Both the position numbers and the translations under genes were made by a program. A DNA stretch of 64,000 nt, taken from NCBI GenBank assembly GCA_045578255.1, contig JAZNJW010000003.1:8282-72281 (forward strand), in the 5' to 3' direction. Positions 37,426 to 52,471 of the stretch are shown piece by piece. The notes under the pieces are model-generated. The model had not been told where the DNA came from. It ran no database searches and saw only the letters and a list, made by a program, of their open reading frames with translations. This DNA comes from Paludibacteraceae bacterium (GTDB lineage Bacteria; Bacteroidota; Bacteroidia; Bacteroidales; Paludibacteraceae). Within the stretch, counting starts at the first letter, position 1. Each line of letters starts with the position of its first letter.

Positions 37426-37446
37426 ACGTTCTAAATTTAATAGGGT

Positions 37447-38277
37447 TTACCAACGGCGACGAAATAATCCGCCAATCAAACAGATTAATATATAGAATGG
37501 ATATACTACCTCCAACAGCAACGCTGTACCGAAGCCAACCGACTTATCGCGTTTCTTAATCAAGTGATATTCAATCGGAAACTTCACAATCAAAGCCACA
37601 GGACATAACACCTGTATCACATTGGCTATCAATACGATTGCTCCGCAGCAGAGAATATCTTTGTCGGTGTATTTGGGTGCTTTACCAGCCCAACGCATGC
37701 GTTGATGGAAGAACGCAAGCCAAGTGGTTTGAGGGCGAACGAGGGCGGTCAATTCCTCGCTCTCACTCACCGCAATCTTCAGTCCCCGACGCTTGAAGGA
37801 CTCTAAGAGAAACATATCATCGCCACTCGGTATTTCGGGATGCAAGTCGGGATAGGACTCCAACCATCTATCGCGTTTGGCAATGAGGTTCGCCCCACTA
37901 CACAGCACAGCATGCCCACGTTTGGCTGTTTCTATGGTCAGTTGCTGAATGGCAGCATACTCTGCCATCTGCAACCGCTCCAGTAGCGACGGTTTCTCTC
38001 TCTCCGACTCCATCCGCAGTGGAAGGATGAGGAGATCGCTTTGCTGTAGATCGCTCGCGATGCTCACTGTAGATCGCTTTGCTGTAGATCGTTCGTGATG
38101 CTCACTGAAGACACTATTGCTGATGGGAGATGGGAGAATATCATCGTCCATCATCCAAATATACTCTGTTTGGGATTCAGAGATAAGGCGATAAAGGGCA
38201 TGTTTCTTGCCCTTCCCTTCGTCGTTGATTCCCCGTCGCGGGATGATGATTGATATGTTATTGCTATTAATATCCAA
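37447..38277 (-). CDS. Family-2 glycosyltransferase carrying an in-frame repeat insertion
   Basis: ISIIIP..., an acidic DDD motif, QRMRWAGK, and C-terminal TM helices. Confidence 0.7.
   Translation of the reverse strand: MDINSNNISIIIPRRGINDEGKGKKHALYRLISESQTEYIWMMDDDILPSPISNSVFSEHHERSTAKRSTVSIASDLQQSDLLILPLRMESEREKPSLLERLQMAEYAAIQQLTIETAKRGHAVLCSGANLIAKRDRWLESYPDLHPEIPSGDDMFLLESFKRRGLKIAVSESEELTALVRPQTTWLAFFHQRMRWAGKAPKYTDKDILCCGAIVLIANVIQVLCPVALIVKFPIEYHLIKKRDKSVGFGTALLLEVVYPFYILICLIGGLFRRRW
38034..38109. repeat. 38-bp unit x2 tandem repeat inside the GT2 CDS, followed by GATGGGA x2 at 38122-38135
   Basis: gatcgctttgctgtagatcgctcgcgatgctcactgta / gatcgctttgctgtagatcgttcgtgatgctcactgaa, with 3 mismatches. 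Encodes ..HHERSTAKRSTVSIASDLQQSD.. Confidence 0.9.
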
Positions 38278-38301
38278 AGTCGTCTAATCTATAGGAGATT
38301 G

Positions 38302-38309
38302 CAAAGGTA
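38302..38309 (-). promoter_or_regulatory. -7 box (minus strand) for the GT2 / trpB-like genes
   Basis: CAAAGGTA followed by a T-tract, about 25 nt upstream of the start at 38277. Confidence 0.55.
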
Positions 38310-38392
38310 GTACATTTTTTTGAGATATGCAACAATTATCCATAAATCTCGAATTTATTAAACTATTTCTTGCTCCATTCAAAATATTTCAT

Positions 38393-38400
38393 TATCTTTG
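38393..38400 (+). promoter_or_regulatory. -7 box TATCTTTG for the LRR protein gene
   Basis: Matches TAnnTTTG, 60 nt upstream of the ATG at 38460. Confidence 0.5.
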
Positions 38401-38459
38401 CAAACCATTAAGTTTAACAAACAAGAAATCAATTGAAATAACATAAAACCTAAGTAAAG

Positions 38460-39485
38460 ATGAAAAAGTTATCTTCTCTTTTCATGGCAATCCTCGCTGC
38501 TACATACCTTTGGGCGTATGATTTCGAAGCTGGTGGTTTGTTTTACAATGTTATTAGTGACACCATACCTTACACTGCTGAAGTGACCAATCATCCTGGT
38601 TTCCCTTACGAGATTGCATCGGCTACAATTCCAGAGAAGGTTAATTATTGTGACATTACCTATGTTATTAAAAGAATTGGAGCGGGAGCTTTTGAAGATT
38701 GTTACGCACTCACCTCTGTCACCATCCCCAATTCAATAACTAGCATAGAATCATTCGCTTTCAAGAATTGCCAATCGCTCAACTCTATCAATATCCCAAA
38801 GAGCGTGGTGTTTATTAAACCCACTGCATTTTCTAATTCTGGTATTTACAACGATGAGTCTAATTGGGAAGATAGTGTGCTTTACATTAGCGATTGTTTG
38901 ATTCAAGCGAAACGAGGGCTTACAGGTTCGTATATAGTTAAGGAAGGAACTCGATTGATCATTAATGAAGCATTTGCAGGATCTAATCTTACTGACATTA
39001 CGATTCCTAATACAGTAACTGATATTGGTGTAGGTGCTTTTCAATATTCAGCTCTTACTTCCATCATTATTCCTAATGGTGTAACGAAAATATGGGCAGG
39101 TGCTTTCCACCATTGTACTTCCCTCAAGTCAGTTACGCTTCCCAACAGCATTACGCAAATCCAGCGCGATGCTTTTAGGGATTGCACTGCTCTTACGACA
39201 GTCGTTTGCGAGGCGGTTCAAGTACCAGATTGTCAGCATAATATATTTGCCAACATACCATTTCTGGAGGCTACGTTATATGTACCTAAAGAATCTTTAG
39301 AGGAATATAAATCAGCCATTTATTGGAAAGACTTTGGCACTATCTTGCCAATAGCCCCAACAGGTACAGAAAACACACATTCTAAGAATAACAATAGTTC
39401 TTCATTTACCAAAGTAATCCTCAATGGTCAACTTCTCATCCTCCGTGATGGCAAGACATACACCGTGATGGGTGTGGAATGGTAG
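38460..39485 (+). CDS. BspA-type leucine-rich-repeat surface protein with probable T9SS C-terminal domain
   Basis: Signal peptide. Repeats IPNSITSIESFAFKNCQSL, IPNTVTDIGVGAF and LPNSITQIQRDAFRDCTAL. Tail KVILNGQLLILRDGKTYTVMG. Confidence 0.8.
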   Translation: MKKLSSLFMAILAATYLWAYDFEAGGLFYNVISDTIPYTAEVTNHPGFPYEIASATIPEKVNYCDITYVIKRIGAGAFEDCYALTSVTIPNSITSIESFAFKNCQSLNSINIPKSVVFIKPTAFSNSGIYNDESNWEDSVLYISDCLIQAKRGLTGSYIVKEGTRLIINEAFAGSNLTDITIPNTVTDIGVGAFQYSALTSIIIPNGVTKIWAGAFHHCTSLKSVTLPNSITQIQRDAFRDCTALTTVVCEAVQVPDCQHNIFANIPFLEATLYVPKESLEEYKSAIYWKDFGTILPIAPTGTENTHSKNNNSSSFTKVILNGQLLILRDGKTYTVMGVEW

Positions 39486-39520
39486 TCTTTTCGCGAGGTT
39501 CTATGACTGCTCCGAATAGT

Positions 39521-39564
39521 GCGGTTATTGTCCGGTTATTGTCCGGTTATTGTGCGGTTATTGT
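39521..39564. repeat. 11-bp tandem repeat (G/C)CGGTTATTGT x4 at the convergent LRR/aroA junction
   Basis: gcggttattgt ccggttattgt ccggttattgt gcggttattgt. The aroA stop and its last codons (..SHRTITAQ*) lie inside it. Confidence 0.9.
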
Positions 39565-40791
39565 GCGGTGCGAGCAGGGAGTTTGTGGAAATAGTTTATA
39601 GTATTCTTCCATAAATTGAGGATAGGATTTGCTGATGCAGGCGATGTCGTCCACTTCGTAGCCAGCAATCAACAATGCCATTGCCATGCGGTGGTCGTGG
39701 TCGGTGCGGTGTTCGCGTACAGCACGCAGGCGGTCGGATTCCTTCAGAGGCAAAGATTCTACGCCTGTGGCATGTAACTCTATGCCCAAACATTCACAGG
39801 TCAGAGCGACAGCAGGGTACAGGTCGGGGCAAGTTCCGAAATCCTGAATGAGGATTTTGGAACGGGACGCCGCTTGTGCGGCTATTGGACGCCCACCATG
39901 TGGGCTATTGGACGCTTCGCTATAGGCGATAGGCGAAAGGATGATGCCTTCGGCGGTGTAGGTAGTATGGACGCCGAGGTGGGCGAAGATGTCGGCAATG
40001 ATTTTGTCGCCTTGCAGCGAGTCGCGGAATAAGCCAGGGAGCGTAATCTCACCACCGTAAAGAGCCACATACTCGTACCAGAAGGCGGCAGAGGACCAGT
40101 CCTTTTCTAGTTCGTTCGCTATCCTCACTGTAGATCGCTGCGCTGTAGTTCGCTCGTTTTGCTCGCTGTAGTTCGCTCGTTTTACTCGCTGTAGATAGCT
40201 TTCTATTATCTCGCGGGTAAGAGTAATGTAAGGAGAAGTGCTATTGGTTTGGACGTTCGCGCCGATGAGGAGCAGGGCCGAAACGAACTGCGTAGATTGG
40301 GGATTGTTGAGAGTAACTATCCTATGCTTATCTAATATACATCCCTTAATGCGCAAAGGCGGGAAGCCCTCTTCGCCTAGATATTCTATATCAGCCCCTA
40401 TCTCATGCAAAGCATCTACTAACTGACCTATAGGACGGTGACGCATGCGTTCCACACCATTAAGAATAACTGTTTGTCCCTCTAGTTGAGCACAGTAGGC
40501 CGTGAGGAAGCGCATGGCGGTGCCACAATTGCCGAGTTCGATACTCGAACAGGACGCCGCTTGCGCGGCTATAGGACGCCCTGACGGGCTATAGGACGGC
40601 GTTTCGCCTATAGGACGCTCGCTCTGCGAGCTATTGGATGCATTGTTTAGTGTGGTTAAAGCGCGATGGAGAATCTGCACATCTTCGGGCAAAGTAGCGG
40701 AGACGGGCATAAGCTCGTCTCCGTGTATGGATTGCAAAATCAATAGGCGATTTGCAATGGATTTCGATATTGGCAGTTCAATCTGCATCAA
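39547..40791 (-). CDS. aroA: 3-phosphoshikimate 1-carboxyvinyltransferase (EPSP synthase) with three in-frame low-complexity insertions
   Basis: LPISKSIANRLLIL, GNCGTAMRFLTAYCA and DHRMAMALLIAG motifs. Confidence 0.9.
   Translation of the reverse strand: MMQIELPISKSIANRLLILQSIHGDELMPVSATLPEDVQILHRALTTLNNASNSSQSERPIGETPSYSPSGRPIAAQAASCSSIELGNCGTAMRFLTAYCAQLEGQTVILNGVERMRHRPIGQLVDALHEIGADIEYLGEEGFPPLRIKGCILDKHRIVTLNNPQSTQFVSALLLIGANVQTNSTSPYITLTREIIESYLQRVKRANYSEQNERTTAQRSTVRIANELEKDWSSAAFWYEYVALYGGEITLPGLFRDSLQGDKIIADIFAHLGVHTTYTAEGIILSPIAYSEASNSPHGGRPIAAQAASRSKILIQDFGTCPDLYPAVALTCECLGIELHATGVESLPLKESDRLRAVREHRTDHDHRMAMALLIAGYEVDDIACISKSYPQFMEEYYKLFPQTPCSHRTITAQ
39865..39940. repeat. In-frame repeat block in aroA (encodes ..SNSPHGGRPIAAQAASRS..)
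   Basis: ggacgccgcttgtgcggctattggacgcc, then gctattggacgc again, then ataggcg x2. Confidence 0.85.
40124..40199. repeat. In-frame repeat block in aroA (encodes ..NERTTAQRSTVRIANE..)
   Basis: The 16-nt core ctcactgtagatcgct is identical to the GT2 repeat. It is followed by the 23-bp unit gctgtagttcgctcgtttt(g/a)ctc x2. Confidence 0.85.
40552..40640. repeat. In-frame repeat block in aroA (encodes ..SERPIGETPSYSPSGRPIAAQAASCS..)
   Basis: ggacgccgcttgcgcggctataggacgcc has 27 of 29 nt identical to 39865-39893. It is followed by ctataggacg words x3. Confidence 0.85.
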
Positions 40792-42764
40792 TTGATGTCA
40801 GGTAAGAAAGAATAGTCGCGAGAGTAGCGGAGGTGCTGCTCGATATAACCCTCGGTGTAGTCGAGAGTGACATCTGTGATATTGCCTTCTGCATCATAGT
40901 GCGCGGTGTAAACAGGGTTAACGAAGCCCTTGTATGGTGCGAGGTTGAGTTTCTCATAACGCTCCAAAATCTCGCGGTGCAAGTCTTGATCTACTTTCAC
41001 AGCGTATTCCTCAACCATCGCTTTAGCAGCAGGATAGTCGCCCTCTGAGGTGATGCGTTGAATCTCACGTAGTAACTCGCCATAGAGGCGGCGAACGCCC
41101 TCGTAATCATTGATTTGGAGGTAGTGTTTGCCATCGCGTTCGATAATCTCTACCTCTTTGTTTTGAGCGTTCTTATATACCCAAAGAGCAATCAACTGAC
41201 GGTTGCGCATGTGCGATTCCTCGATGTCTTTGCCTGGCTCGATACGCACGAGTTGGGTCATGAGACCATTCATCATCTGTTGGTAGTAGAAGCCCTTGTA
41301 TGCCTCTTCATCCTCCAACAAGCCAAGCTCTACCAATTTAGGGTCAGCCATATAGTAGAGACCGAGCAAGTCGGCACGTGCCTCCTCGATAGTAGAAGCG
41401 TGCTCCTTGAGCGCATCTTTGGTAACGCCTGGCATGAGTTTGCCAGATCCGTGACCTACGCACTCGTGGAGGTCGGTATGCAAGTCGCCGCAAGCACCTG
41501 CTTTCTCGTACATAGCAATCACCTCTGGGCTAATCATAAACTCCTCGTTGAAGCCATTGCCTTTGGCAGCTTCGTTGTAAGCGTGGGTGATATTGTCGAT
41601 CGTGACGGACTTAGAACCATAGTCTTTGCGAATCCAGTTGGCATTAGGCAGATTGATGCCGATAGGGGTAGCAGGATAGCAGTCGCCTGCCAAGATAGCT
41701 GCGGTGATAACCTTTGCGCTCACGCCTTTAACTTCCTCTTTCTTGTATTTCTTATCGGTTGGGGAGTTGTCCTCGAACCATTGTGCGTTGTCGGAGATGG
41801 TTTGGCAACGGTGGGTAGCACGCATGTCTTTGAAGTTCACAAGTGACTCCCAAGTACCTGTAATGCCCAGAGGGTCAGCATATGTCTCGGTAAAACCATT
41901 CACGAAGTCCACGCGGCTGTTGAGGTCTTTCACCCAAGCGATGCAGTATTCGTTGAAAGCGCGAAGGTCGCCTGTCTTATTGAACTCAATCATCTTTTCA
42001 ATAACGAGGCGTTGTTGCTCGTTCTCAGCGAAAGGCAGGGCTTTCTCGAGGTGCTCAACCACATGGCTGAGTGCTTCGCCGTACATGCCACCTACTTTAT
42101 ATACGCGCTCTACCACTTTGCCGTTCTCCTTCACGAGCTTGCTGTTGAGACCAATCCAGAGTGGCTCTGCGGAGTTGTCTTTGTGTGCCTCGTAGTATGC
42201 TTCTGCTTCGGCTTGGGTCACGCCCTCATAGTAGTTGTTGGCAGACGCAAGGAGCAGGTCTTCGCCGTCAAGACTCAAACTCTTTGGCATTACGGTTGGG
42301 TCGAAGATGACTGGCAGAATTGCCTCGTCGTAGGTCACACCTGCTTCAGCACAAGCGTTTACGAACCACTCTTGAGAGAATTCTGGTTGGAACTTGTCAG
42401 AAGCGTAGTGGTGGTGAATACCGTTGGCAAACCATACGCGTTTGAGGTATTTCTCGAAGTTGAGGAATTCCTCGCTTGTCTTATCGCCCTTGTATTGAGT
42501 GTATAGGGCTTCGAGTGCGCGACGGATACGCAGGTTGTAGCGACCGTTTTGATCATAGAGGATATCACGACCGTGCAAAGCTGCTTCGGTGAGGTGATAA
42601 ACGAGGGTCTTTTGTTGCAGACTCAGTGAGTCAAACTCTGGCACTTGGTAGCGCAGAATTTCGAGGTCATAAAACTTGTCCACGGTGTAGTCAAATGTTT
42701 GTTCTTGTTTGCAGCATGCGCTGAGTGCTACGAGCGCAAGGCCAAATAGGATTGTTTTTTTCAT
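40788..42764 (-). CDS. Dipeptidyl-peptidase III (peptidase family M49), lipoprotein/exported
   Basis: Zinc motifs HECVGHGSG and EEARADL (M49 HExxGH / EExRA(D/E)). Signal peptide with Cys (LVALSACC). Confidence 0.85.
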   Translation of the reverse strand: MKKTILFGLALVALSACCKQEQTFDYTVDKFYDLEILRYQVPEFDSLSLQQKTLVYHLTEAALHGRDILYDQNGRYNLRIRRALEALYTQYKGDKTSEEFLNFEKYLKRVWFANGIHHHYASDKFQPEFSQEWFVNACAEAGVTYDEAILPVIFDPTVMPKSLSLDGEDLLLASANNYYEGVTQAEAEAYYEAHKDNSAEPLWIGLNSKLVKENGKVVERVYKVGGMYGEALSHVVEHLEKALPFAENEQQRLVIEKMIEFNKTGDLRAFNEYCIAWVKDLNSRVDFVNGFTETYADPLGITGTWESLVNFKDMRATHRCQTISDNAQWFEDNSPTDKKYKKEEVKGVSAKVITAAILAGDCYPATPIGINLPNANWIRKDYGSKSVTIDNITHAYNEAAKGNGFNEEFMISPEVIAMYEKAGACGDLHTDLHECVGHGSGKLMPGVTKDALKEHASTIEEARADLLGLYYMADPKLVELGLLEDEEAYKGFYYQQMMNGLMTQLVRIEPGKDIEESHMRNRQLIALWVYKNAQNKEVEIIERDGKHYLQINDYEGVRRLYGELLREIQRITSEGDYPAAKAMVEEYAVKVDQDLHREILERYEKLNLAPYKGFVNPVYTAHYDAEGNITDVTLDYTEGYIEQHLRYSRDYSFLPDIN

Positions 42765-42798
42765 ATGATTTGAAATTTGTTGTCTGTATATTTCGCTG

Positions 42799-42806
42799 CA
42801 AAGGTA
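42799..42806 (-). promoter_or_regulatory. -7 box (minus strand) for the DPP III-aroA operon
   Basis: CAAAGGTA followed by T9, about 35 nt upstream of the start at 42764. Confidence 0.6.
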
Positions 42807-42967
42807 GTATTTTTTTTTGAAATATGCAAGTTTTTTTGAATTGACTTCATATTTCCCGTTTTCACTTTCGATGCAGTTCTATATATTATAGTAATGCCGT
42901 ATCTTCGGCATTTTAGCGGTTTTGCGCCGAAGGTTTGAGAATTTGGAGAGTAAAATGGTATATATAA

Positions 42968-43018
42968 CACGCGGAAGCATCTGTATTACAAGAGCTTCCG
43001 CGTGAGTGTATTTTTTTT
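42968..43018. terminator. 11-bp-stem hairpin + T8 at the left edge of the AT-rich island
   Basis: CACGCGGAAGC-N15-GCTTCCGCGTG, then AGTGTA and TTTTTTTT. Confidence 0.55.
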
Positions 43019-43206
43019 AAAAAGTTTTCTTCGCGCGAAGATTCTGCCGAAAATTAAAAGTTATCAGTTTCGAGAGAAAATATTCTTTTTGATGTATGTA
43101 GAATATCAAAAATACTATGTAATAACCGAAACTATAATCTCGTGTTTAGTTGTGTTAAGTTATAGCGAATTGGAGAATTTGAAATGATAAGAGAGAACCT
43201 CATCAA

Positions 43207-43851
43207 CTACACAAATCGATTAGAATTATGCAAACTTAATAATTGATATTCTTCAAGCATCTCCCATTTGGGCATATACCCTAAACAAGAAGACTCCCAA
43301 TCCTTTATTTTTTGCAAAAAAATATCCTTAATTGCTACGATATATTCATATTCCCAACCATTTGAATATTCAACTGATGTTCTAAATATTGCTATCTCAT
43401 CATTATGTCTATAAGCAGCTTCTAACCATAAAAAGATAGTTTGTTTTGGCAGTAATGTATATGTATCATCATCTATGTTATTCAAATCTAGAGCGAAAAG
43501 GTATTGTAAATATTTCTTTTCATCAATCGTATAGTTTTTTCGCTCTAATTTGTTTAATAATTTATTATAAATTCTCTTTCCTTCGTTTCGTTTTGACCGC
43601 TTTACCTTATGTAATATCGACTGTTCGTATTCACCTGAGCAAAAAGATACACTAATTTCTTGCGTATTTCCCTCCACATCTATCAATAAATAGTAAGCAT
43701 GACACCCCGTATACCTTATGGCACTATCTCCATATATAAATCCAAAAACACCTTGTTCTTCATATTTACCAATATAGTATGCCGCATAATGATGCGATTC
43801 TTTTGCAACTGCATCTGCTATTTTCTGATATCTTTTACAATATTTCCACAT
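43207..43851 (-). CDS. Hypothetical 214-aa protein, translationally coupled to the GmrSD-like gene
   Basis: The ATG at 43849-43851 lies 2 nt after the upstream TAA (43854-43856). No signal peptide, TM helix or motif that I recognise. Confidence 0.65.
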   Translation of the reverse strand: MWKYCKRYQKIADAVAKESHHYAAYYIGKYEEQGVFGFIYGDSAIRYTGCHAYYLLIDVEGNTQEISVSFCSGEYEQSILHKVKRSKRNEGKRIYNKLLNKLERKNYTIDEKKYLQYLFALDLNNIDDDTYTLLPKQTIFLWLEAAYRHNDEIAIFRTSVEYSNGWEYEYIVAIKDIFLQKIKDWESSCLGYMPKWEMLEEYQLLSLHNSNRFV

Positions 43852-43853
43852 AA

Positions 43854-45932
43854 TTATTCTGTTTTTCTTTGCGGATGAAGTACAATAGATATAGCATCTG
43901 TTTCGTATTCATACATGGTAAGTAGCCTATATAATTGGCGAAGCTTGTTGTGTGTGTTACATGCAACCTTAAGATATAGATTTTCGGAGATTTGGTTAAA
44001 TCCTTCTTCTGGATGTGTTTCATAGAATCCTTCTTGAGGATTTTGTGCCAAATAATTTAATTTTGAGTTGTCTTTTTCATACAATGTTTTTACGATACGA
44101 GTAAAAGCATCTGCCCAACTGTCCACATTAACAACTAAGCCTTCAAAACGGTAACATTTGATATATCGACCTTTAAATTCAAATTCGGCATCAATAGGAA
44201 TAAATTCCTCTTCTGACACGATTGGTTTATAGTGAGTTGTTGGATATGGCCATATTTTGCAAGCTTGTTCTGCAAACCAATTGCACCGCGTTTTTATGTT
44301 TTGTAGAGTCCAATGTTCTTGTTCACTCACATACTTATTCATTGCCACACAACTATCTTTAAACCCTTTCATATCTTGCAAGGTAGGTATGCCGTCACGC
44401 TTCTCAGAGAATTTGCGGTTACTATACTCTGAGTTATATGCTGTCAATGTTAAGTTTCCTATATTATGTAACCATTTATCATATTCTTCTTCAGTAATAT
44501 CTCCCAACTCTATTTTCCAATCGTCTGATAGAGTTTGTGGCATAATATGTTCAATACTTAATACACCATCCTCAATTTTCATTTTCGTACCAACCGCCTC
44601 TTTATTCATTGCTTCTTCAAATTTATAGAACAAATACAAGCGATAGTTACTTCTCATCTTATATACTTCTCTTTCTTCAAAACTCAGTTTAAACTTTTCA
44701 TCATTTGGAAACTCCCAATAGGTAATACCATGTTGAAGTAAGTAGATGAAAACATCAAGATATGTGAAATTATCATACATCATTTTGATAATTCGATTAT
44801 GAAGATTTACAAAAATCTTGTTTAGTCCAGTATTGTAAAATCCACTCATAATACGGCGGAAGAGAAATACTTCAAGCACTCCCAAAACTTTTTCTGCTTC
44901 ATTATCGGAAATACCTCCTTGTCTGTGGTAAGCCAATAATGCTAGTAAAAATGGATATGTCGTAGTTAATTCTAACTGCTCCAAATCCGTCATTATGGCG
45001 TTCGCTTTATTTGTGCCTATTTTGGACTCCTTAATGGATTTGAAAATAGTTGCATAATATTTTAGATCTGTTAACAAGGGTTCTACATCACTGGCATAAT
45101 TCTCTAATACGAAATCCTTAAACACTTTGTAAACATCATTTCTATTAGGAATATAATTCAATCTCATGGTAAGGTAATCTCGCATGAAGTCTTCCATATA
45201 GATATTGGTGCTAATTTCTATAGGCAACCAATAATTATTGTAAATGTGTTCTTGTCGTTTTGCATCAAGATTCATCAATACAAAATTGCGTATTTTATCT
45301 GTTTCATTGAGACTGACACCAGTAGAATTGATAGTTTCAAATACAAGTTGAGCATTATCTCCATATTGTGGTTCTAATGAAATCTGTACAAATTCTAGCC
45401 TGTTTTTTATTGCTTCGTAAAACTTTGTTGCATCTACATTTTGGGATATTAGTTCGTTGTAAAAGAATTTGTAGTTGATAGTTATTTGTGATGTCTCAAT
45501 ATAATTTTGCGCATCACCAAATAATGCGTCATAAGCTTTGCAATCATCACGAAATGGTTTTAATTTCATGCGATGTTCTTCTGTACTACTGAATTGATTA
45601 ACAAGAAACTCGTATTCAATTTGATTAGCAAGAGATGGATTTGTGACCTCTATTTCGCCATTTTTGATGGCATTTCGCAAAGCAAGTAAAAGAATAGATA
45701 TCGTTGTTATACGCTGTTGCCCATCTATCACAATAAAAGAATCCGCATGGTCTACAAAGACAACACTTCCGATAAAATGTTTTTTGCGTTCATCATTACA
45801 GATATTTAGTATATCATCAAATAATAGCTTGCAATTTTCTTTTCTCCATGTATAATTGCGTTGATATACTGGCACTACCAAAGGTTTGGTACTATGAAAG
45901 AATTTCGCTAAAAAAGTTTCTTGACCTCTCAT
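43854..45932 (-). CDS. GmrSD-family type IV restriction-like nuclease (N-terminal DUF262 + C-terminal DUF1524) with an extra C-terminal extension
   Basis: DUF262 motifs PVYQRNYTW and VIDGQQRITT. DUF1524 His-Me-type motifs SIEHIMPQ and WLHNIGNLTLTAYNSEYSN. More than 100 residues follow the last motif. Confidence 0.85.
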   Translation of the reverse strand: MRGQETFLAKFFHSTKPLVVPVYQRNYTWRKENCKLLFDDILNICNDERKKHFIGSVVFVDHADSFIVIDGQQRITTISILLLALRNAIKNGEIEVTNPSLANQIEYEFLVNQFSSTEEHRMKLKPFRDDCKAYDALFGDAQNYIETSQITINYKFFYNELISQNVDATKFYEAIKNRLEFVQISLEPQYGDNAQLVFETINSTGVSLNETDKIRNFVLMNLDAKRQEHIYNNYWLPIEISTNIYMEDFMRDYLTMRLNYIPNRNDVYKVFKDFVLENYASDVEPLLTDLKYYATIFKSIKESKIGTNKANAIMTDLEQLELTTTYPFLLALLAYHRQGGISDNEAEKVLGVLEVFLFRRIMSGFYNTGLNKIFVNLHNRIIKMMYDNFTYLDVFIYLLQHGITYWEFPNDEKFKLSFEEREVYKMRSNYRLYLFYKFEEAMNKEAVGTKMKIEDGVLSIEHIMPQTLSDDWKIELGDITEEEYDKWLHNIGNLTLTAYNSEYSNRKFSEKRDGIPTLQDMKGFKDSCVAMNKYVSEQEHWTLQNIKTRCNWFAEQACKIWPYPTTHYKPIVSEEEFIPIDAEFEFKGRYIKCYRFEGLVVNVDSWADAFTRIVKTLYEKDNSKLNYLAQNPQEGFYETHPEEGFNQISENLYLKVACNTHNKLRQLYRLLTMYEYETDAISIVLHPQRKTE

Positions 45933-45981
45933 GATATTGGAATTTTACTTATTGTTTACTTAGGTTTTGTTTTTTACTCGG

Positions 45982-45989
45982 CAAAGATA
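45982..45989 (-). promoter_or_regulatory. -7 box (TATCTTTG on minus strand) for the GmrSD-like operon
   Basis: CAAAGATA lies about 50 nt upstream of the start at 45932. Confidence 0.5.
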
Positions 45990-46015
45990 GTGAATTATAT
46001 TGAATTGAGCAAGAG

Positions 46016-47020
46016 TTATTTCTCCGTCAGTTTTTTTATTTCGCGGTCGAAGTCGGAAATGATTTTCTGAGTTTTATTAAATTCCATGTACTCATCTTCT
46101 GCTTTTTTATCCGCTTGTGAACGAGAAACGCGCCCTTTATCCGTCAGTATTTGGTATTTGCGAAACTCTAAAAACTCATTTACACTATTTGCAAACTCCG
46201 CCATTGTAAAAGTATTCTCTTGCTCGATAAGGTCTTCGATATAATCAAAATATCCCGTTACTGCACGCTCTAATCGGCGTATTTGTTTTTCATCTAAATA
46301 ATTTTTAGCAATGGTTACATCCGATTTTAAGATTCTACCATCTGGCGCATACTTCCATGTTGTCAATCCCATGTGCTCCTTTGTATGATCTGCTTTGGAG
46401 TGAACAATCTCTGCTGCTGTTTGCCCTGTAATAGCATAGTGAAATTTATTTTGCACCATGGCATAGAACTCTTGCGTAATAGGAGAAGTACGGTCATAGT
46501 CCAAACTGCATTCTGCAAAGATGTCCGTTATCTGTTGCCATATACGACGCTCGCTGGCACGAATAGAACGAACGCGCTCTAGCAATTCACGGAAATAATC
46601 TTTGCCAAAAGCAGTGGTTCCTTGTTTCAATCGTTCATCATCCAACACAAAGCCCTTTTGGATAAACTCTTTGAGAATCTTAGTCGCCCAAATACGGAAA
46701 TGAGTAGCTTTAGCTGAATTAACTCTATAACCAACAGAAATAATTGCATCAAGGTTGTAGAAGTTCGTTTCCTTTTGTTGCGTTTTGCCTTCTATCGCAC
46801 CATGTTGAGTGGTTATTTCCATTTTGGAAACAACCATATTTTCTGCCAGTTCTCCCTCTTCAAAAATATTCTTTAGATGCTTACTAATAGCAGGAACTTG
46901 TACACCAAACAATTCAGCCATTGCTTTTTGTGTCAGCCAAAGTGTTTCATCCTTTACCACCGCTTCAATGTTGACATTTCCCTGTGGGGTCTGGTAGATT
47001 ATAAAATTTATCTCATTCAT
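46016..47020 (-). CDS. RhuM-family protein
   Basis: N-terminus IIYQTPQGNVNIEAVVKDETLWLTQKAMAELFGVQVPAISKHLKNIFEEGEL and YNLDAIISVGYRVNS are characteristic of the RhuM family. Confidence 0.8.
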   Translation of the reverse strand: MNEINFIIYQTPQGNVNIEAVVKDETLWLTQKAMAELFGVQVPAISKHLKNIFEEGELAENMVVSKMEITTQHGAIEGKTQQKETNFYNLDAIISVGYRVNSAKATHFRIWATKILKEFIQKGFVLDDERLKQGTTAFGKDYFRELLERVRSIRASERRIWQQITDIFAECSLDYDRTSPITQEFYAMVQNKFHYAITGQTAAEIVHSKADHTKEHMGLTTWKYAPDGRILKSDVTIAKNYLDEKQIRRLERAVTGYFDYIEDLIEQENTFTMAEFANSVNEFLEFRKYQILTDKGRVSRSQADKKAEDEYMEFNKTQKIISDFDREIKKLTEK

Positions 47021-47052
47021 ATCTCTATTGGTTCAATATCACTTTCACTCTG

Positions 47053-47060
47053 CAAAGATA
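47053..47060 (-). promoter_or_regulatory. -7 box (minus strand) for the RhuM-family gene
   Basis: CAAAGATA followed by T9, about 35 nt upstream of the start at 47020. Confidence 0.5.
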
Positions 47061-47237
47061 CACTTTTTTTTGCATCCCTGCAAATAAATTCGCTATTAGA
47101 GCGATTTTATCTGATGTTGAGTGTTTGTTCGAGTCAAAACATATTGATAAAAGCCTCTATTAATACCCATATACAGAAAACTGCTAATAATAGGTCAAGA
47201 ATTATTATAATTAATCTATCCATAATTTAGAATTGCA

Positions 47238-47444
47238 TTAAAAGTCATTATCCTCATACGAATCAAATTCCGACATACCATCGCTATCGTAGTCGTCACA
47301 GTCCCAATCTTCGCGAGAACTCCAATTACCAGAACCACTTGCGCGATGACGGCGGTCTTCATGAATGCTACGGTAGTCTTCAATGTCAAATTGTCCGTTG
47401 GTTGTGCTCTCATCAGAGCCAAAGAGAAAATCAAATAGTCCCAT
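47238..47444 (-). CDS. Hypothetical 68-aa hyper-acidic protein
   Basis: 20 Asp/Glu against 5 Arg and 0 Lys, by my count. Own TAnnTTTG box upstream. An overlapping 78-aa ORF in another frame looks less protein-like. Confidence 0.45.
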   Translation of the reverse strand: MGLFDFLFGSDESTTNGQFDIEDYRSIHEDRRHRASGSGNWSSREDWDCDDYDSDGMSEFDSYEDNDF

Positions 47445-47493
47445 AATCTCATTATTTAAAGGTTAAACATATGTTTATTTCTGAAATCCGCTG

Positions 47494-47501
47494 CAAAATT
47501 A
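47494..47501 (-). promoter_or_regulatory. -7 box (TAATTTTG on minus strand) for the acidic ORF
   Basis: Matches TAnnTTTG about 50 nt upstream of the start at 47444. Confidence 0.4.
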
Positions 47502-47537
47502 CTACATCAAACTGCTAAAACTTGTCAGTTTGTAAAG

Positions 47538-47573
47538 AAAAATGCACTTTTTTTGCTGAAAAGTGCATTTTTT
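47538..47573. terminator. Bidirectional hairpin insulating the island from the phosphorylase gene
   Basis: 14-bp stem AAAAATGCACTTTT / AAAAGTGCATTTTT with a 7-nt loop. Confidence 0.65.
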
Positions 47574-47603
47574 GTGGTTATCAAGGGTGAAATACAATAA
47601 AAA

Positions 47604-47619
47604 GTGAGCTCGAGCTCAC
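47604..47619. repeat. Perfect 16-bp palindrome GTGAGCTCGAGCTCAC
   Basis: Read directly. Lies where the composition shifts back to GC-richer sequence. Confidence 0.9.
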
Positions 47620-47621
47620 AA

Positions 47622-47860
47622 GTTAGTCAACTTTTTCAGTAATCGAGTCAACCTTTTTCAGGTTTAGTCAAGGTTTAGTCATGGGGAGTTGAGTCGGAGT
47701 TCTCTCGGTCATCGGTCGGTGGAATTAGGGAATGTATAAGAGAGTGAAAAGAGACGGCAATCTTAATAAACAGCACTTTTTGTATTTGGGAGTTCTTTGG
47801 TCGTTCCATGGTTCTTCTTTGGTTTCTCCTTGGTCTTTTACCCGAGGGAAATAGAGAAGG
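47622..47860. repeat. Non-coding block of stuttering direct repeats
   Basis: AGTCAAC(C)TTTTTCAG x2, GGTTTAGTCA x2, TCGGTC x2 and TTCTTTGGT-type words x3-4. AATCTTAATAAA occurs at 47759-47770 and again just downstream of the block at 47874-47885. Confidence 0.8.
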
Positions 47861-47882
47861 TACAAAGGTGGGAAATCTTAAT

Positions 47883-47919
47883 AAAACGCCACTTGTGCAT
47901 GAAACACAAATGGCGTTTT
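47883..47919 (-). terminator. Terminator of the nucleoside phosphorylase gene
   Basis: 15-bp stem AAAACGCCACTTGTG / CACAAATGGCGTTTT with one mismatch. Confidence 0.7.
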
Positions 47920-47992
47920 AGTGGTATTTTGAGAAGTTAATGACTTTGGGGCAGTAAGGACTTTATAGTCGTTAGGGACTTTAAAGCCAACG

Positions 47993-48871
47993 TTAAATTC
48001 TCTCCAGTACGGTTTGTACGAGTTGTTTGATACGAGGTTTGTAGTCGGTATTCGCCGCTTCGACTTTGCGTTGAGCGATGACACAGCAGACGGTCATGGC
48101 CTTGTGTCCCATCAGCAAGCTGAGGCCTGCGATAGCACTACCCTCCATCTCGTAATTGGTGATGCGTTGTCCCTCATAACGGAAGTCAGTGATACGTTCG
48201 TTGATGTCCTTCACCGCCAAATCACAGCGCAACACACGGCCTTGAGGGCCATAGAAACCGTTGGCAGCGATAGTGCAACCACGCATCATGTCATCGCCTG
48301 CGATGCGATTGACCAGTTCGGGGTTAGCAGCCACTACATATGGGCGAGCCGCTTTGGCAGGATAGTGGATGAAGTCCACGAGTGTATCCTCAAAACCGAG
48401 GTCGGCAATCTCATCACGGCCTTCGTAGAAAGCCAAGACACCGTCCCAACCGATGGACTTCTCGCTCACGAGGAAAGTGCCAAGAGGGATGTCCTCTTGC
48501 ATGCCTCCGCACGTGCCGATGCGCACAATCTCAAGTGTGCGGTGCTCGTCTTTCTCGGTGCGAGTGGCGAAGTCGATGTTGGCGAGAGCGTCCAATTCGT
48601 TGAGCACAATATCGCAGTTGTCGGTACCGATACCCGTAGAGATACAAGAGATGCGTTTGCCGTGGTATTTACCTGTGATAGTATGGAACTCACGGCTTTG
48701 GATATCGCATTCAATGCTGCCTTCGTCAAAAAACGAAGCCACCATGTTGACGCGACCTTGGTCGCCGACCAATATCACCTTATCCGCCAGATGTTCGGGG
48801 CGAATGTGCAAATGGAATATGCTACCATCCTCATTGATAATGAGTTGGCTGGCAGGGAATGTCTTTTTCAT
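47993..48871 (-). CDS. Nucleoside phosphorylase (PNP/UDP family 1, uridine-phosphorylase-like)
   Basis: ADKVILVGDQGRV, ISTGIGTDN and EMEGSAIAG motifs. The 291-aa plus-strand ORF over the same DNA is a shadow. Confidence 0.85.
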   Translation of the reverse strand: MKKTFPASQLIINEDGSIFHLHIRPEHLADKVILVGDQGRVNMVASFFDEGSIECDIQSREFHTITGKYHGKRISCISTGIGTDNCDIVLNELDALANIDFATRTEKDEHRTLEIVRIGTCGGMQEDIPLGTFLVSEKSIGWDGVLAFYEGRDEIADLGFEDTLVDFIHYPAKAARPYVVAANPELVNRIAGDDMMRGCTIAANGFYGPQGRVLRCDLAVKDINERITDFRYEGQRITNYEMEGSAIAGLSLLMGHKAMTVCCVIAQRKVEAANTDYKPRIKQLVQTVLERI

Positions 48872-48885
48872 AGTAAAACGTTGTT

Positions 48886-49021
48886 TTAGACCGCTCGCGT
48901 TGCTCGCTGTTAGAAGTTAGACCACTGCGTTGTTAGAAGTTAGACTATGAAAATCTCTCAGCGCGAAGCGCGATCTAACAGCCGAAGGAGGTCTCTCTTC
49001 TCTCAGCCCGCAGGGCGGTCG
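48886..49021. repeat. Intergenic word-repeat block
   Basis: GTTAGAAGTTAGAC x2 (48909, 48932), CTCGCGTTGCTCGCTG, and TCTCAGCGCGAAGCGCGATC / TCTCAGCCCGCAGGGCGGTC. Confidence 0.8.
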
Positions 49022-49030
49022 GGTTAATGG

Positions 49031-49336
49031 TTAGGCTTGACCGCCGCCGAAGGACATAGGGATAGTACTTCCTGGGGCAGGAGTGCCATTGATTTTGATG
49101 GTACCAAATTGCTTTTCGTATTTAGCTACATTCTCTTGCAGCGCAAAAAGCAGTTTTTTGGTATTCTCTGGTGTCATGATGATGCGCGATTGCACGTTTG
49201 CGCTCTTCTGACCAGGCATCATGCGCACGAAATCTACTACAAACTCCGATGATGAGTGTGCTACGATAGCGAGGTTAGAATAATTACCTTCAGCCACTTC
49301 GGGCGAGAGGTTGATGTTGAGTTTTTGTTCTTCCAT
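49031..49336 (-). CDS. DUF3467-family protein
   Basis: NLSPEVAEGNYSNLAIVAHSSSEFVVDFVRMMPG matches my recollection of the DUF3467 family. Confidence 0.7.
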   Translation of the reverse strand: MEEQKLNINLSPEVAEGNYSNLAIVAHSSSEFVVDFVRMMPGQKSANVQSRIIMTPENTKKLLFALQENVAKYEKQFGTIKINGTPAPGSTIPMSFGGGQA

Positions 49337-49368
49337 ATGAATGTTGTTTAGTGTTGTTTAGAGTGGTA

Positions 49369-50547
49369 TTACCAGTAGATAGGTCTTTTGCGGAAGTGTT
49401 GTGTGAACAATATCCATAACGAAATCAATGGTAATATAATATCGTACGCTACAATCTCTATGCCAAACAATCTTCCACCTAACTTATGAGCGGAGGTGTT
49501 GATTATGCAAAGTTGCATTATTAAACGTAGCCACAATAATGTGTAGGCTGCACACATTGCCCAACCGCTGCCCAAAATGAATATAGCAATAATTAATGCG
49601 TAGAATAATCCGCGAGTTAATGGCTCAATACCTAACCGTAACTTACTGCTGAACTTATAGTTGGGTGAAACGGATAGGTGTCTGCGTTTTTGGTGCATCC
49701 ATTCTTTCCAACTTGTTTTTGGAGCCGACCAAGTAATGCTATCTGGTGAACATATGATAGTGGTGTTATGGTGGTTTGTCACTTTGTTTACAAACAAATC
49801 GTCATCGCCAGCTCGTTCGCCCAGTAGTCCGCGAAAACCACTATTGCGAAAGAAAGTATCTTTTTTGTATGCAAGATTTCGTCCTACTCCCATATATGGA
49901 TGTCTAGCTGCTGCCATGCCCAAATATTGCATTCCGATGAATAGCGTATCATAATTAATTAGGCTGGTAAGCAAAGAATTTTTTGCAAAATACGCACCAT
50001 AGCCTAGCACCACTTCTGTTTGTTCATCCCTAAAACCTTGCATCATTTCTTGTATCCAATAACGCGATTGAGGACGGCAATCCGCATCGGTTAGTAATAG
50101 GTAATCGTAGTTGGCGGCTTTCACTCCGATGGTTAGCGCTAATTTTTTGCTACTGACAACGCGCGCACCTGCGGGAACGAAGGTTATATATAGGTTGTTG
50201 CATTGTTGGGCATATCGCTCTAATATAATTTGCGTGTTATCTTCCGAACTATCGTTTACCACAATGACTTCGTAGCAAGGGTAGTCTTGTGTCAGGAGTG
50301 TGTGCAGATAATCTTGTAGATTAGTTTGTTCATTGCGTGCGCAGACGATAACGCTCACTTTTGGCAATTCCCTATTAGGCATTAACGACCTATTTTTGTT
50401 CTTACGACACCAACGATTCACCTTCGTCATATAGCGAAGATAAAAATAGCACTGATGCACCATGACAATTAATAATGCACCCAGCAAGCAATGATCGAGA
50501 TATGTCAAAAAGGGAAGAGGAAACATTTTATGGAATAGCAGAGTCAA
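49369..50547 (-). CDS. Membrane-bound family-2 glycosyltransferase
   Basis: VSVIVCARNEQTNL...EVIVVNDSSEDNT, LLLTDADC and QKRRH, with TM helices at both ends. An alternative start at 50526 would remove the overlap with the upstream gene. Confidence 0.85.
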   Translation of the reverse strand: MTLLFHKMFPLPFLTYLDHCLLGALLIVMVHQCYFYLRYMTKVNRWCRKNKNRSLMPNRELPKVSVIVCARNEQTNLQDYLHTLLTQDYPCYEVIVVNDSSEDNTQIILERYAQQCNNLYITFVPAGARVVSSKKLALTIGVKAANYDYLLLTDADCRPQSRYWIQEMMQGFRDEQTEVVLGYGAYFAKNSLLTSLINYDTLFIGMQYLGMAAARHPYMGVGRNLAYKKDTFFRNSGFRGLLGERAGDDDLFVNKVTNHHNTTIICSPDSITWSAPKTSWKEWMHQKRRHLSVSPNYKFSSKLRLGIEPLTRGLFYALIIAIFILGSGWAMCAAYTLLWLRLIMQLCIINTSAHKLGGRLFGIEIVAYDIILPLISLWILFTQHFRKRPIYW

Positions 50548-51262
50548 TAAGGTATCGATTGAATATGCGTATTTTGCTTTTTTTCAATTCTTTGAGTGCT
50601 ATTTTGCATACTTCTTGTGAGCCCGCTTCTGTGAGATTATACTCAATTCGTGCAGGTGAGTCTGATACATGCATGAAGTATTTTTTAGCTTCATCTTCTC
50701 CGATTTCTTTCAACCACTGATAGGTTGCACGATGGAGATCTAATAGTGGAATATTTTTCGCTTTGGCTACGCGGCGAATAGATTCAGGATAACTGCCCAT
50801 GCGATCAACCAACTCACCTTGGCGGTAAAAAGGTTGTGCCAAAGGAGTGGCAAGCACCACTTTGAGCTCTTTTTTGGATAGAAAATCAAGAATCTTAATC
50901 AATTTTTCAACCATTTCTTCAGTGGAATAATACATATTGCTGCGATCCATGCGCATATCATTCTGCCCAATCTGGAGCAATACAATATCATCGGGATTAC
51001 TACTAGCCAGGATTTTTGCCAAACGCTTATCCACCAACGTGTGTGTGCTCTCACCCGCCTTGGCATGATTTTCTACGTCCACCTTGCTCGTGACGCATTG
51101 AGCGAATGCTCCACCCCAACCATAGGAATCTAAAGACGCTACACTATGAGATGCCAAAGTGGCATCACCAATTAAATAAATCTTGGTCTTCGCCTCGCAT
51201 AACAGGGAAAGGCTCAGTAATACAGATAAACAAAGGAAAATCTTTTTCATAGCGATACTCAT
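50528..51262 (-). CDS. SGNH/GDSL-fold (rhamnogalacturonan-acetylesterase-like) exported protein with substituted catalytic residues
   Basis: Signal peptide. Block I reads IYLIGDATLA, with Ala where the nucleophile Ser is expected. Block II AGES and block III IGQND are present. The block V region reads IEYNLTEAG instead of D..H. The real start may be MKKIF at 51250. Confidence 0.65.
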   Translation of the reverse strand: MSIAMKKIFLCLSVLLSLSLLCEAKTKIYLIGDATLASHSVASLDSYGWGGAFAQCVTSKVDVENHAKAGESTHTLVDKRLAKILASSNPDDIVLLQIGQNDMRMDRSNMYYSTEEMVEKLIKILDFLSKKELKVVLATPLAQPFYRQGELVDRMGSYPESIRRVAKAKNIPLLDLHRATYQWLKEIGEDEAKKYFMHVSDSPARIEYNLTEAGSQEVCKIALKELKKSKIRIFNRYLIDSAIP

Positions 51263-51284
51263 TTAAATATTTCGACTACTGTTG

Positions 51285-52247
51285 TTATTCTTCATACACT
51301 AAACAAATGTTATCCACCCAAAAAGCGTTGTTTTCGTGGCCAACAAACGCTTCCATTTTGCCAGATGTAACCACGATTACCATATGGGTTGGTTCTAAAG
51401 AACCATCCCACCCCTCTTCTTGAATAGGAGTGATTTTTCCGCGTGAGTTCATAGCACGCTGCATGCCTTTGAACCCCATATAGTCTTTGTACCAAGTCGC
51501 GGTTGTAATGTCACCATAATGGATGGGCACGCGGTGAGCATTTACCCATTCCTCTTGTGACTTCGAGAAGCGCTCATAACCTGTACCCACTCGGATTGAG
51601 TGTATCTTGCCTTTCTCATCTTCCCAACGATGTTGCAGATAGATATATACTTCGGCCTCATCTATGTCGCCATTCTCTAATTCTTTTTTCTTGGGCTTTG
51701 CCATGCCTTTTGCATACCATACCCAATGCTCTTGTTCGATGATGCATTTATAGTCGAACATCAGTGCCGATGGGCGTTTTGTAAACGGAACGCCAAAGTC
51801 GATATTTTGATATGGGTCTGCTGCGGTAGTGATAGGTTCTATGTTGCGACCAGTGAATAGCGTGCCAGCTACAAGTACTTGGATATCAATCATTCCCATT
51901 ACTCTTACTCCTAACATGTCTACGTCTAATCGACAGCATGTTCCACCATCGCTGCGTGCTTCGGGTGACATCGTGCCCGCTGCCTTCTCAATGCCAATTA
52001 CATTTGCATAGGCATTGCTAGTGGACCAAGGATTACCATGTTGCCCAAAAATATATGGAGCGTTTTTATGAATCGTGTCAGTAGGGTCAAGACAATATAG
52101 GGTTTTGGTGTTGCCTCCCAAAAGTTTGGATTCTTGGATATATCGTACAGTCCATTGTTCCATGTCACCGAACGGAATAGGTTCGATACGTTCCGCCAGT
52201 AGGCACAATGGCCAGCAGAGTAATGGTAAAAAAAGTATTTTTTTCAT
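51285..52247 (-). CDS. Hypothetical exported protein
   Basis: Signal peptide MKKILFLPLLCWPLCLLA. No motif I can name with confidence. Confidence 0.55.
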   Translation of the reverse strand: MKKILFLPLLCWPLCLLAERIEPIPFGDMEQWTVRYIQESKLLGGNTKTLYCLDPTDTIHKNAPYIFGQHGNPWSTSNAYANVIGIEKAAGTMSPEARSDGGTCCRLDVDMLGVRVMGMIDIQVLVAGTLFTGRNIEPITTAADPYQNIDFGVPFTKRPSALMFDYKCIIEQEHWVWYAKGMAKPKKKELENGDIDEAEVYIYLQHRWEDEKGKIHSIRVGTGYERFSKSQEEWVNAHRVPIHYGDITTATWYKDYMGFKGMQRAMNSRGKITPIQEEGWDGSLEPTHMVIVVTSGKMEAFVGHENNAFWVDNICLVYEE

Positions 52248-52325
52248 GTTATATTTTCTCTTATGCTCTTATTGACTTTTTACGCCCTGAAGAGGCGTTC
52301 TAACATCTTTATGGTAAAAAACGTG

Positions 52326-52333
52326 CAAAGGTA
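52326..52333 (-). promoter_or_regulatory. -7 box (minus strand) for the 52247-49031 gene run
   Basis: CAAAGGTA followed by T8. Confidence 0.5.
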
Positions 52334-52423: not shown

Positions 52424-52471
52424 CAGCATGAATTGTATAATGTCGTATCATATCCAAACTATTTTTTTGCG

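Follow-up and report, generated by a model that had tools for sequence, protein, structure and literature searches.

A putatively self-sufficient GmrSD/HEC-06-like nuclease and a rare 214-residue companion protein in a predicted defence islet of a Paludibacteraceae genome

A stretch of 64,000 nucleotides (nt) from a Paludibacteraceae bacterium (GenBank assembly GCA_045578255.1, contig JAZNJW010000003.1, positions 8,282 to 72,281 of the forward strand), referred to here as the window and numbered from its first letter, carries on its minus strand a gene for a 692-amino-acid (aa) nuclease of the GmrSD type, followed after 2 nt by a gene for a 214-aa protein. The reading favoured here, which is tentative and falls somewhat short of being probable, is that the nuclease is self-sufficient and that the 214-aa protein would be a facultative, modular accessory of DNA-targeting effectors that has a putative functional connection with it. 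The nuclease is of a routine kind, and its partner is rare and dispensable for the nuclease family. What is new is the attachment to a GmrSD cassette of a rare protein family whose confidently predicted fold matches nothing in PDB or BFVD; also new are an unannotated C-terminal domain of a large GmrSD subfamily and the cassette and border organisation of the low-GC (guanine plus cytosine) islet in which both genes lie.

The features that define GmrSD proteins at the level of sequence, a DUF262 domain with DGQQR and a DUF1524 domain with (D/E)H...N...N, are both present in the 692-aa protein. The motifs named in the original prediction, an earlier reading of the letters and open reading frames (ORFs) of this DNA, could all be located: PVYQRNYTW and VIDGQQRITT of DUF262 occupy residues 21–29 and 68–77, EHIMPQ and HNIGNLTLTAYN of DUF1524 occupy residues 461–466 and 489–500, and the corresponding Pfam domains GmrSD_N and GmrSD_C are intact (Table 1). 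DGQQR is kept in all 120 homologues listed as best matches and EH..P in 119 of them. The top PADLOC match is full-length, to models named 'Orf5' (E 3.7e-137), and the HEC-06 profile (PDLC04155, E 1.5e-68) is likewise matched over its full length, with residues 8–563 aligned to model positions 12–560 of 562, while the SspE models cover mainly the N-terminal ~100 residues and the sole sequence match in PDB (9jfl, E 9e-8) is confined to the N-terminal 90. At least 7955 relatives of the nuclease came up when its homologues were searched for. Among the 120 best, 90 are 680–710 aa long, and most align over 97–100% of the query at 37–70% identity; a further 25 measure 820–860 aa, 13 of which have a precomputed DUF4268 (PF14088) annotation. 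Judged by its sequence, the 692-aa protein is in no way exceptional within its GmrSD/HEC-06-like subfamily of Bacteroidales, which is very large. The original prediction had seen in the gene pair a form of type IV restriction not described before, a view that finds no support in a nuclease of the known HEC-06/GmrSD type whose relatives defend as single genes.

Beyond residue ~559 the protein leaves the reach of all GmrSD, PADLOC and PHROG models, the HEC-06 and Orf5 matches ending at ~563. The original prediction had remarked on this C-terminal extension as one without a recognisable motif; it exists and has no database match (none in Pfam, nothing significant in a profile search of PDB sequences), but it is not peculiar to this gene, being a conserved domain of the subfamily. 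About 130 aa long, it is shared by most of the 120 best homologues, its alignments show seven invariant positions (W3, P6, P12, F38, W48, T102, K105), and its ratio of non-synonymous to synonymous substitution rates (dN/dS) of 0.08–0.09 indicates purifying selection. Since the alignment is conserved, dN/dS is low and most of the listed homologues share it, the extension can be regarded as a real, so far unannotated subfamily domain. Its spread was shown by the full-length search, a word-index search with the extension alone having returned one fragment, which was uninformative. The domain probably serves in recognising the substrate or in assembly and would be a candidate modification-recognition module missing from current domain databases. 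Variable extra C-terminal regions, including DUF4268 and DUF4357, have already been noted in GmrSD proteins (Machnicka et al., PMC4619093). In the long homologues, including P0043, P0059, P0060 and P0066, DUF4268 lies, where annotated, after the conserved C-terminal domain. A match to S-AdoMet_lyase (E 0.16, or 0.012 with the isolated domain) was seen in one of 23 members and was dismissed as chance, and hhalign found no relation between the domain and the family of the 214-aa protein.

The linkage of the two genes is tight. On the minus strand their junction reads GAA TAA TT ATG, with the TAA at 43856–43854 and the ATG at 43851–43849, so that the distance of 2 nt given in the original prediction stands. 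Every close relative examined (loci L003–L011) has the same order of a 692-aa GmrSD gene, 2 nt and a gene for a protein of 213 or 214 aa. In DNA comparison with L003–L010, the pair forms one unbroken block of homology at 91% identity (46012..42881), which reaches from just 5' of the putative GmrSD promoter motif to ~330 nt beyond the 214-aa gene. Because this block remains unbroken although the neighbouring gene has been exchanged (the swap of RhuM for DUF1016 described below), and because a 97%-identical copy exists between different flanks, the pair can be said to move as one cassette. The motif TAnnTTTG is the -7 consensus of Bacteroides promoters. It was found 40–57 nt 5' of the ATGs of the 68-aa ORF, the RhuM gene, the GmrSD gene and the M49 peptidase gene, where it may serve as promoter, and it was not found within 200 nt 5' of the 214-aa ATG. 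Lacking a promoter motif of its own and starting 2 nt past a stop codon, the 214-aa gene is probably carried on the nuclease mRNA.

Whether so close an arrangement reflects need is a separate matter. The original prediction had proposed an obligate two-gene type IV system in which the nuclease depends on the 214-aa protein as its regulator, sensor or self-immunity factor. By itself, the GmrSD of such a system would be inactive or toxic. The translational-coupling distance, the invariable co-occurrence of both genes within the lineage of 85–100% identity and the presence of a distant homologue (P0141) in a second GmrSD-containing locus would all suit such a system. Of that proposal, the tight coupling in a single cassette in L003–L011 is borne out, while the obligate partnership is not supported by the nuclease's own relatives. 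Three of them at 64–70% identity (P0018, P0021 and P0027, in loci L012–L019) have the same domain set, C-terminal domain included, and in their loci neither a 214-like gene nor a remnant detectable by tblastn was found; downstream of the nuclease there are gaps of 500–770 nt or unrelated genes instead. The partner occurs only in the lineage with at least 94% nuclease identity, and its whole family of 19 clusters faces at least 7955 nuclease homologues, so that the partnership cannot be followed across the nuclease's relatives. Moreover, HEC-06-type enzymes that were tested work alone (bioRxiv 10.1101/2024.01.29.577857, 10.1101/2025.02.28.640651), members of the 214-aa family exist without GmrSD, and the 214-aa gene changes about four times faster than the nuclease at non-synonymous sites. 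An obligate pair is for these reasons improbable. Conversely, since relatives at 64–70% identity do without a 214-like gene and HEC-06 and its Bacteroides homologue HEC-06_Bact defend as single genes, the window nuclease would itself be self-sufficient.

The 214-aa protein belongs to a rare family. As the original prediction had stated, it shows neither a transmembrane helix nor a familiar motif: its sequence has no hydrophobic run of more than six residues, and nothing significant was found for it in Pfam, PADLOC, NCBIfam or PHROGs, nor for the family region of 18 family members in Pfam, PADLOC or PHROGs, nor for the family profile among PDB sequences. When 1.84 billion representative proteins were searched exhaustively with HMMER, 19 clusters were obtained, where an earlier word-index search had yielded three, and a metagenome scan with a sub-alignment of the family found three loci only. 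Several motifs recur in the family (Q-x-x-AD, Y-x-G, DS-x-PR-x-x-G-x-P, YLEYL and (W/Y)LEAAxR), and full or almost full conservation is limited to G49, L143 and R148, for which reason the protein does not have the look of an enzyme with an active site. With an 18-sequence alignment, AlphaFold2 returned a model with a mean predicted local distance difference test score (pLDDT) of 91.2 and a predicted template modelling (TM) score of 0.88; a model from four close sequences only (pLDDT 45) was discarded. The predicted fold consists of an N-terminal helix with a four-stranded sheet, a helical middle and then a beta-hairpin with helices. Foldseek found no match to it in PDB (best E 0.22, TM score at most 0.21) and, in BFVD, only partial matches (E of at least 0.035) to uncharacterised phage proteins of 77–90 aa. 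The fold and profile searches, in PDB, BFVD and Pfam, thus assign the protein to no known unrelated family.

Between the window and a sister cassette of 91% identity, the 214-aa gene has a dN/dS of 0.22 (36 non-synonymous and 32 synonymous changes). It is a real, selected gene that evolves faster than the nuclease gene, its non-synonymous rate being about four times as high. That neither ORF of the pair arose by chance is further indicated by the DNA itself, in which stops are frequent at ~32% GC, together with the thousands of nuclease homologues and the purifying selection and confident fold of the 214-aa protein. It could also be asked whether the 214-aa ORF is decaying or has lost its function, as would be the case for a pseudogene or for a remnant domain split off from a larger protein, given that one homologue (in L029) has an in-frame stop and that the dN/dS of the 214-aa gene exceeds that of the nuclease. 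Such a remnant would hardly be expected to show a dN/dS of 0.22, a full-length ORF retained in dozens of metagenomic variants, a confident AlphaFold2 fold and a family conserved down to ~21% identity, nor was a fusion to GmrSD found among the family representatives; this explanation is highly improbable.

Two architectures within the family bear on its function. In P0137 (L031, 72–1109) the family region is fused to a C-terminal GNAT domain (Pfam Acetyltransf_7, E 1e-8), and in P0130, P0131 and P0132 (~290 aa; for example L023, 6001–6897) the half made up of the N-terminal helix and the four strands is duplicated. Both arrangements fit a binding or sensor module. A DNA-mimic or anti-restriction identity was considered and rejected, since the isoelectric points (pI) of the family span 4.6 to 9.7 and searches of phage collections, plasmid collections and viral contigs brought up no homologue.

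The neighbourhoods of family members elsewhere amount to about nine independent contexts, the look-ups of three distant members having led to contigs of 1.3–1.7 kb with little context. The co-occurrence with GmrSD suggested by the original prediction is seen in two independent lineages, that of the window together with P0002 and that of P0141, and it fails in seven others, which have other nucleases or none. P0141, which shares ~21% identity with the 214-aa protein, lies in L025 in the order HsdR, a 687-aa GmrSD from the subfamily of the window nuclease, a 150-aa ORF, P0141 and a REase-ARP/PD-(D/E)XK gene, and overlaps this last gene (REase-ARP/PDDEXK_13) by 37 nt; the four genes from GmrSD to REase-ARP may form an operon. 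The 150-aa ORF (L025, 4196–4648) is Gly/Ser/Val-rich and repetitive and has no Pfam or PADLOC match. In L029, P0129 follows 14 nt after a gene for a DUF4357 protein (PADLOC PDC-S14); the family gene there (1360–1962) has an in-frame stop after codon 37 and is represented in the database by two pieces, P0138 and P0129, and is either a pseudogene or affected by a sequencing error. In L030, a T5orf172 gene (PDC-S57) precedes P0125, which shares an overlap with a HIRAN gene, and in L020, P0127 comes 234 nt after a NucS-like+DUF4268 gene (PADLOC PDC-S11). The DUF4268 protein of L020 has no BLASTP relation to the window nuclease and matches only the DUF4268 tail of the long GmrSD variants. Elsewhere, P0003 (L001/L002) neighbours an insertion sequence transposase, P0131 (L023) is surrounded by small unannotated ORFs in a stretch bounded by housekeeping genes, and the short contigs of P0136 and P0140 hold no nuclease.

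Counted over these contexts, five of about nine have a candidate single-gene defence nuclease directly 5' of the family member or separated from it by one gene, and it is of four kinds (GmrSD, NucS-like+DUF4268, T5orf172 and the DUF4357 protein). At operon distance, where the genes overlap or stand no more than 14 nt apart, a DNA-acting protein is found in four of about nine, the partners being GmrSD, REase-ARP, HIRAN and the DUF4357 protein. The same contexts could be read as those of an independent rider, that is, of a 214-aa protein with a function of its own (it might serve as a separate small protein in defence or counter-defence, or be an immunity-like orphan) that collects in defence islands and whose promoterless cassette landed on the GmrSD transcript without any functional link. 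This is a serious possibility, if a somewhat doubtful one. Family members without any nuclease neighbour, the heterogeneity of the neighbours and the position of the L020 and L023 copies in runs of small unannotated ORFs agree with it, as does the fact that nuclease relatives do without the gene, and the wide range of pI and the few invariant residues fit a fast-evolving protein of the binding or immunity type. Yet a mere passenger would not readily explain why the 2-nt coupling and joint inheritance have survived ~9% nucleotide divergence, several relocations and a cassette swap, nor the operon-distance contact with a DNA-acting protein in four contexts, and in none of the nine does a copy stand alone behind its own recognisable promoter, promoters having been scanned within the window only.

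In the favoured reading, that of a facultative accessory, the effector would be the 692-aa protein, a single-chain, self-sufficient type IV enzyme of the GmrSD/HEC-06 type, whose DUF262 domain (DGQQR) would bind and hydrolyse nucleotides and whose DUF1524 His-Me finger (EH...N...N) would cut DNA with phage-type base modifications. The 214-aa protein, which in this reading is not an obligate subunit, would be a modular facultative accessory of the binding or sensor type, devoid of an obvious catalytic site; it would join the operons of defence effectors that act on DNA and differ in fold, and would tune, protect or extend these effectors, for instance by countering phage inhibitors or limiting self-damage. 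Several points weigh against this proposal. No nuclease adjoins the family member in about half of the informative contexts (L001/L002, L023/L024, L026 and L027), and the gaps of 136 nt in L030 and 234 nt in L020 do not indicate coupling. With about nine contexts, adjacency could be due to chance, defence islands being rich in nucleases; since the sample is small and such islands are nuclease-rich, the association must be taken as suggestive rather than proven. The modification dependence of the 692-aa enzyme, which in the GmrSD family means NTP-stimulated cutting of DNA of the hmC or glucosyl-hmC type with unmodified DNA spared, is assumed from its family membership, and we know of no precedent for one accessory serving His-Me, PD-(D/E)XK and T5orf172-type nucleases as well as a DUF4357 protein.

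A bolder version would make the 214-aa family a new portable, non-catalytic binding module that guards or gates type IV-like nucleases of unrelated folds, namely His-Me GmrSD, PD-(D/E)XK+DUF4268, T5orf172, the DUF4357 protein and REase-ARP. This is rather unlikely; if true, it would mean an unrecognised regulatory layer for single-protein restriction enzymes, concerned with guarding against anti-restriction or with gating self-damage. GmrSD/HEC-06 enzymes are regarded as self-contained, and a small host-encoded rider would point to an unstudied accessory layer that could include inhibitor-guarding, gating or target extension, and would enlarge the inventory of defence islands by a protein of confident fold unmatched in PDB and BFVD. 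Should the 214-aa gene be an unrelated passenger, the locus would merely be another GmrSD-type islet.

Table 1. Features of the islet in window coordinates, all on the minus strand.
Feature	Position	Strand	Evidence
Conserved element 3' of the 214-aa gene with two hairpins (e.g. 42968–43004); right border of the islet	42878..43065	-	inverted repeat I3; copies in L003, L011, L014–L016
Gene for the 214-aa soluble alpha/beta protein, rare unannotated family	43207..43851	-	ORF, AlphaFold2 model, dN/dS
2-nt spacer from nuclease TAA to 214-aa ATG; translational-coupling distance	43852..43853	-	sequence; same in L003–L011
Gene for the 692-aa GmrSD/HEC-06-like nuclease, stop included	43854..45932	-	Pfam, PADLOC, dN/dS 0.06 against L003
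Subfamily C-terminal domain, aa 559–692, motifs IWPYP...SWAD...T..K	43857..44258	-	alignments
GmrSD_C/DUF1524 (PF07510) His-Me finger, aa 409–555	44268..44708	-	Pfam E 6.7e-28
GmrSD_N/DUF262 (PF03235), aa 9–218; QR motif aa 21–29, DGQQR aa 70–74	45279..45908	-	Pfam E 2.4e-33
TAtcTTTG, Bacteroidetes-type -7 motif, 57 nt 5' of nuclease ATG	45982..45989	-	motif scan
RhuM-family gene (PADLOC PDC-S05), separate cassette with its own TAtcTTTG	46016..47020	-	Pfam PF13310 E 2e-104; PADLOC E 1e-158
Conserved 68-aa ORF, pI 4.05, 5' end of the islet, own TAnnTTTG	47238..47444	-	dN/dS 0.13
Conserved repeat-bearing element; left border of the islet	47694..47886	-	direct repeat D1; copies in L003, L007, L011, L014, L016

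The pair is part of a larger unit. The GC profile drops to ~31–34% between about 42750 and 47900, as compared with ~50% outside, and the low-GC block consists of four minus-strand genes, namely a 68-aa acidic ORF, the RhuM gene, the nuclease gene and the 214-aa gene (Table 1). The housekeeping genes on either side encode an M49 peptidase (40788–42764) and a PNP/UDP phosphorylase (47993–48871), with rpoB and rpoC farther off. From its gene content the region is a predicted defence islet of ~5 kb with low GC (about 42880–47890), inserted amid housekeeping genes of a Bacteroidales chromosome. A 4.6-kb block of the islet recurs at 97% identity in a Paludibacteraceae metagenome-assembled genome with differing flanks, and this recurrence, together with the drop in GC, indicates that the islet was acquired horizontally. 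No tRNA genes were found in 36000–54000, no convincing direct repeats of the kind left by integrase-type insertion flank the islet, and no Rfam families were detected within it.

The islet is assembled from cassettes with separate putative promoters: the 68-aa acidic ORF, the RhuM gene and the bicistronic unit of GmrSD and 214-aa genes. In sister islets the RhuM slot holds a DUF1016/YhcG gene of PD-(D/E)XK type (L003, 4603–5760; L007, 2669–3793), while the rest, comprising the region of the 68-aa ORF and the GmrSD+214 unit, remains ~90% identical; the breakpoint lies at ~46012, at the GmrSD promoter region. The 68-aa ORF has 20 D/E residues as against five K/R, is 90% identical across sister islets and falls into a cluster of 166 members (at 90% identity) annotated merely as 'hypothetical protein', and it has no PHROG match; perhaps it acts as a small regulator or in the manner of a DNA mimic.

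Both borders are marked by conserved non-coding elements that recur where cassettes meet in related islets of other genomes (L011, 3948–4122 and 10171–10357; L014, 501–629 and 3266–3353; L016, 145–259, 2835–2922 and 6972–7149; L003, 3877–4007 and ~8770–8970). In the first hairpin of the right element the stem sequence varies between copies and the pairing is kept, and the element is a probable terminator. The left element has a ~30-nt direct repeat with the core TTTTATTAAGATT in addition to GAACCAAAGA-like repeats. The border elements may act in termination or recombination, or mark where a mobile element ends. With its border elements, its swappable RhuM/DUF1016 slot and its GmrSD+214 unit, the islet illustrates the shuffling of single-gene defences in Bacteroidales.

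Some further observations concern the surroundings of the islet and of related loci. The window begins with a gene for a 1608-aa BspA-type leucine-rich repeat (LRR) surface protein (24–4850, plus strand), to which the C-terminus of a 341-aa ORF (38460–39485, plus strand) bears a resemblance by eye. A similar C-terminus precedes the family member P0136 in L026, which is probably coincidental. Near the relatives of the nuclease, two-gene pairs ending in a DUF4325 gene recur (L012, 2794–4042; L017, 7573–8537; and equivalents in L018 and L019), in which DUF4325 is preceded by an unannotated 314-aa ORF in L012 or by a 216-aa HATPase_c_2-like protein in L017–L019; these pairs are probably another defence-island module.

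Among known systems, BREX-associated BrxU (PMC8565348) and Ssp-associated SspE represent the same two-domain nuclease type as the 692-aa protein. The original prediction had found no BREX or Ssp partners in the window, and none is present among its ORFs of at least 450 aa. Eight in number, these are six with housekeeping or surface Pfam domains, the nuclease and an 826-aa ORF without a Pfam match, and they include rpoB, rpoC, the BspA-type LRR protein and the M49 peptidase; those other than the nuclease are unrelated to BREX, and the genes that flank the GmrSD+214 unit directly encode RhuM and the M49 peptidase. Likewise, no Ssp partner was found in the islet, the scan of the rest of the window having covered ORFs of at least 450 aa. 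With EcoCTGmrSD and Eco94GmrSD (PMC4619093, PMC4437046) the nuclease shares Pfam GmrSD_N and GmrSD_C on one chain together with the expected motifs. Its sequence, however, is related to that of classical GmrSD only distantly. The phage inhibitor T4 IPI* is the protein partner known for GmrSD, rather than an operon partner encoded by the host.

Toxin-immunity and toxin-antitoxin pairs offer another comparison, as there too a small, fast-evolving protein of non-catalytic appearance is encoded right after a nuclease gene at coupling distance; the 214-aa partner, however, is absent from most nuclease relatives and is found with unrelated nucleases or alone. Single-protein modification-dependent nucleases are exemplified by MdgA and MdgB, with DUF4268 (bioRxiv 10.1101/2025.02.28.640651), and by CMoRE, with a GIY-YIG domain (PMC12923530), and sensing of the modification by an accessory domain has been proposed for DUF4268 (bioRxiv 10.1101/2025.02.28.640651) and shown for CMoRE (PMC12923530). 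Their design resembles that of the NucS-like+DUF4268 gene of L020 and the DUF4357 gene of L029, both 5' of 214-family members, a likeness that concerns design logic rather than established homology; the upstream proteins of L029 and L030 have no PDB match. DUF4268 is also appended to members of ~830–856 aa within the GmrSD subfamily of the window nuclease. In contrast to the latter, MdgA, MdgB and CMoRE have other nuclease folds, and none has been reported with a small downstream partner.

Close, too, is the likeness to HEC-06, which, like its Bacteroides homologue, protects E. coli as a single gene, HEC-06_Bact being reported to block T-even phages (bioRxiv 10.1101/2024.01.29.577857, 10.1101/2025.02.28.640651). 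The window nuclease shares with HEC-06 the DUF262 domain with DGQQR, a helical linker, the EH-type His-Me motif of DUF1524 and the setting in a defence island. Compared with the HEC-06 models, it adds the ~130-aa C-terminal domain and the coupled 214-aa gene, and whereas its three relatives at 64–70% identity are solitary in the manner of single-gene systems, the copy in the window is accompanied by a coupled downstream gene.

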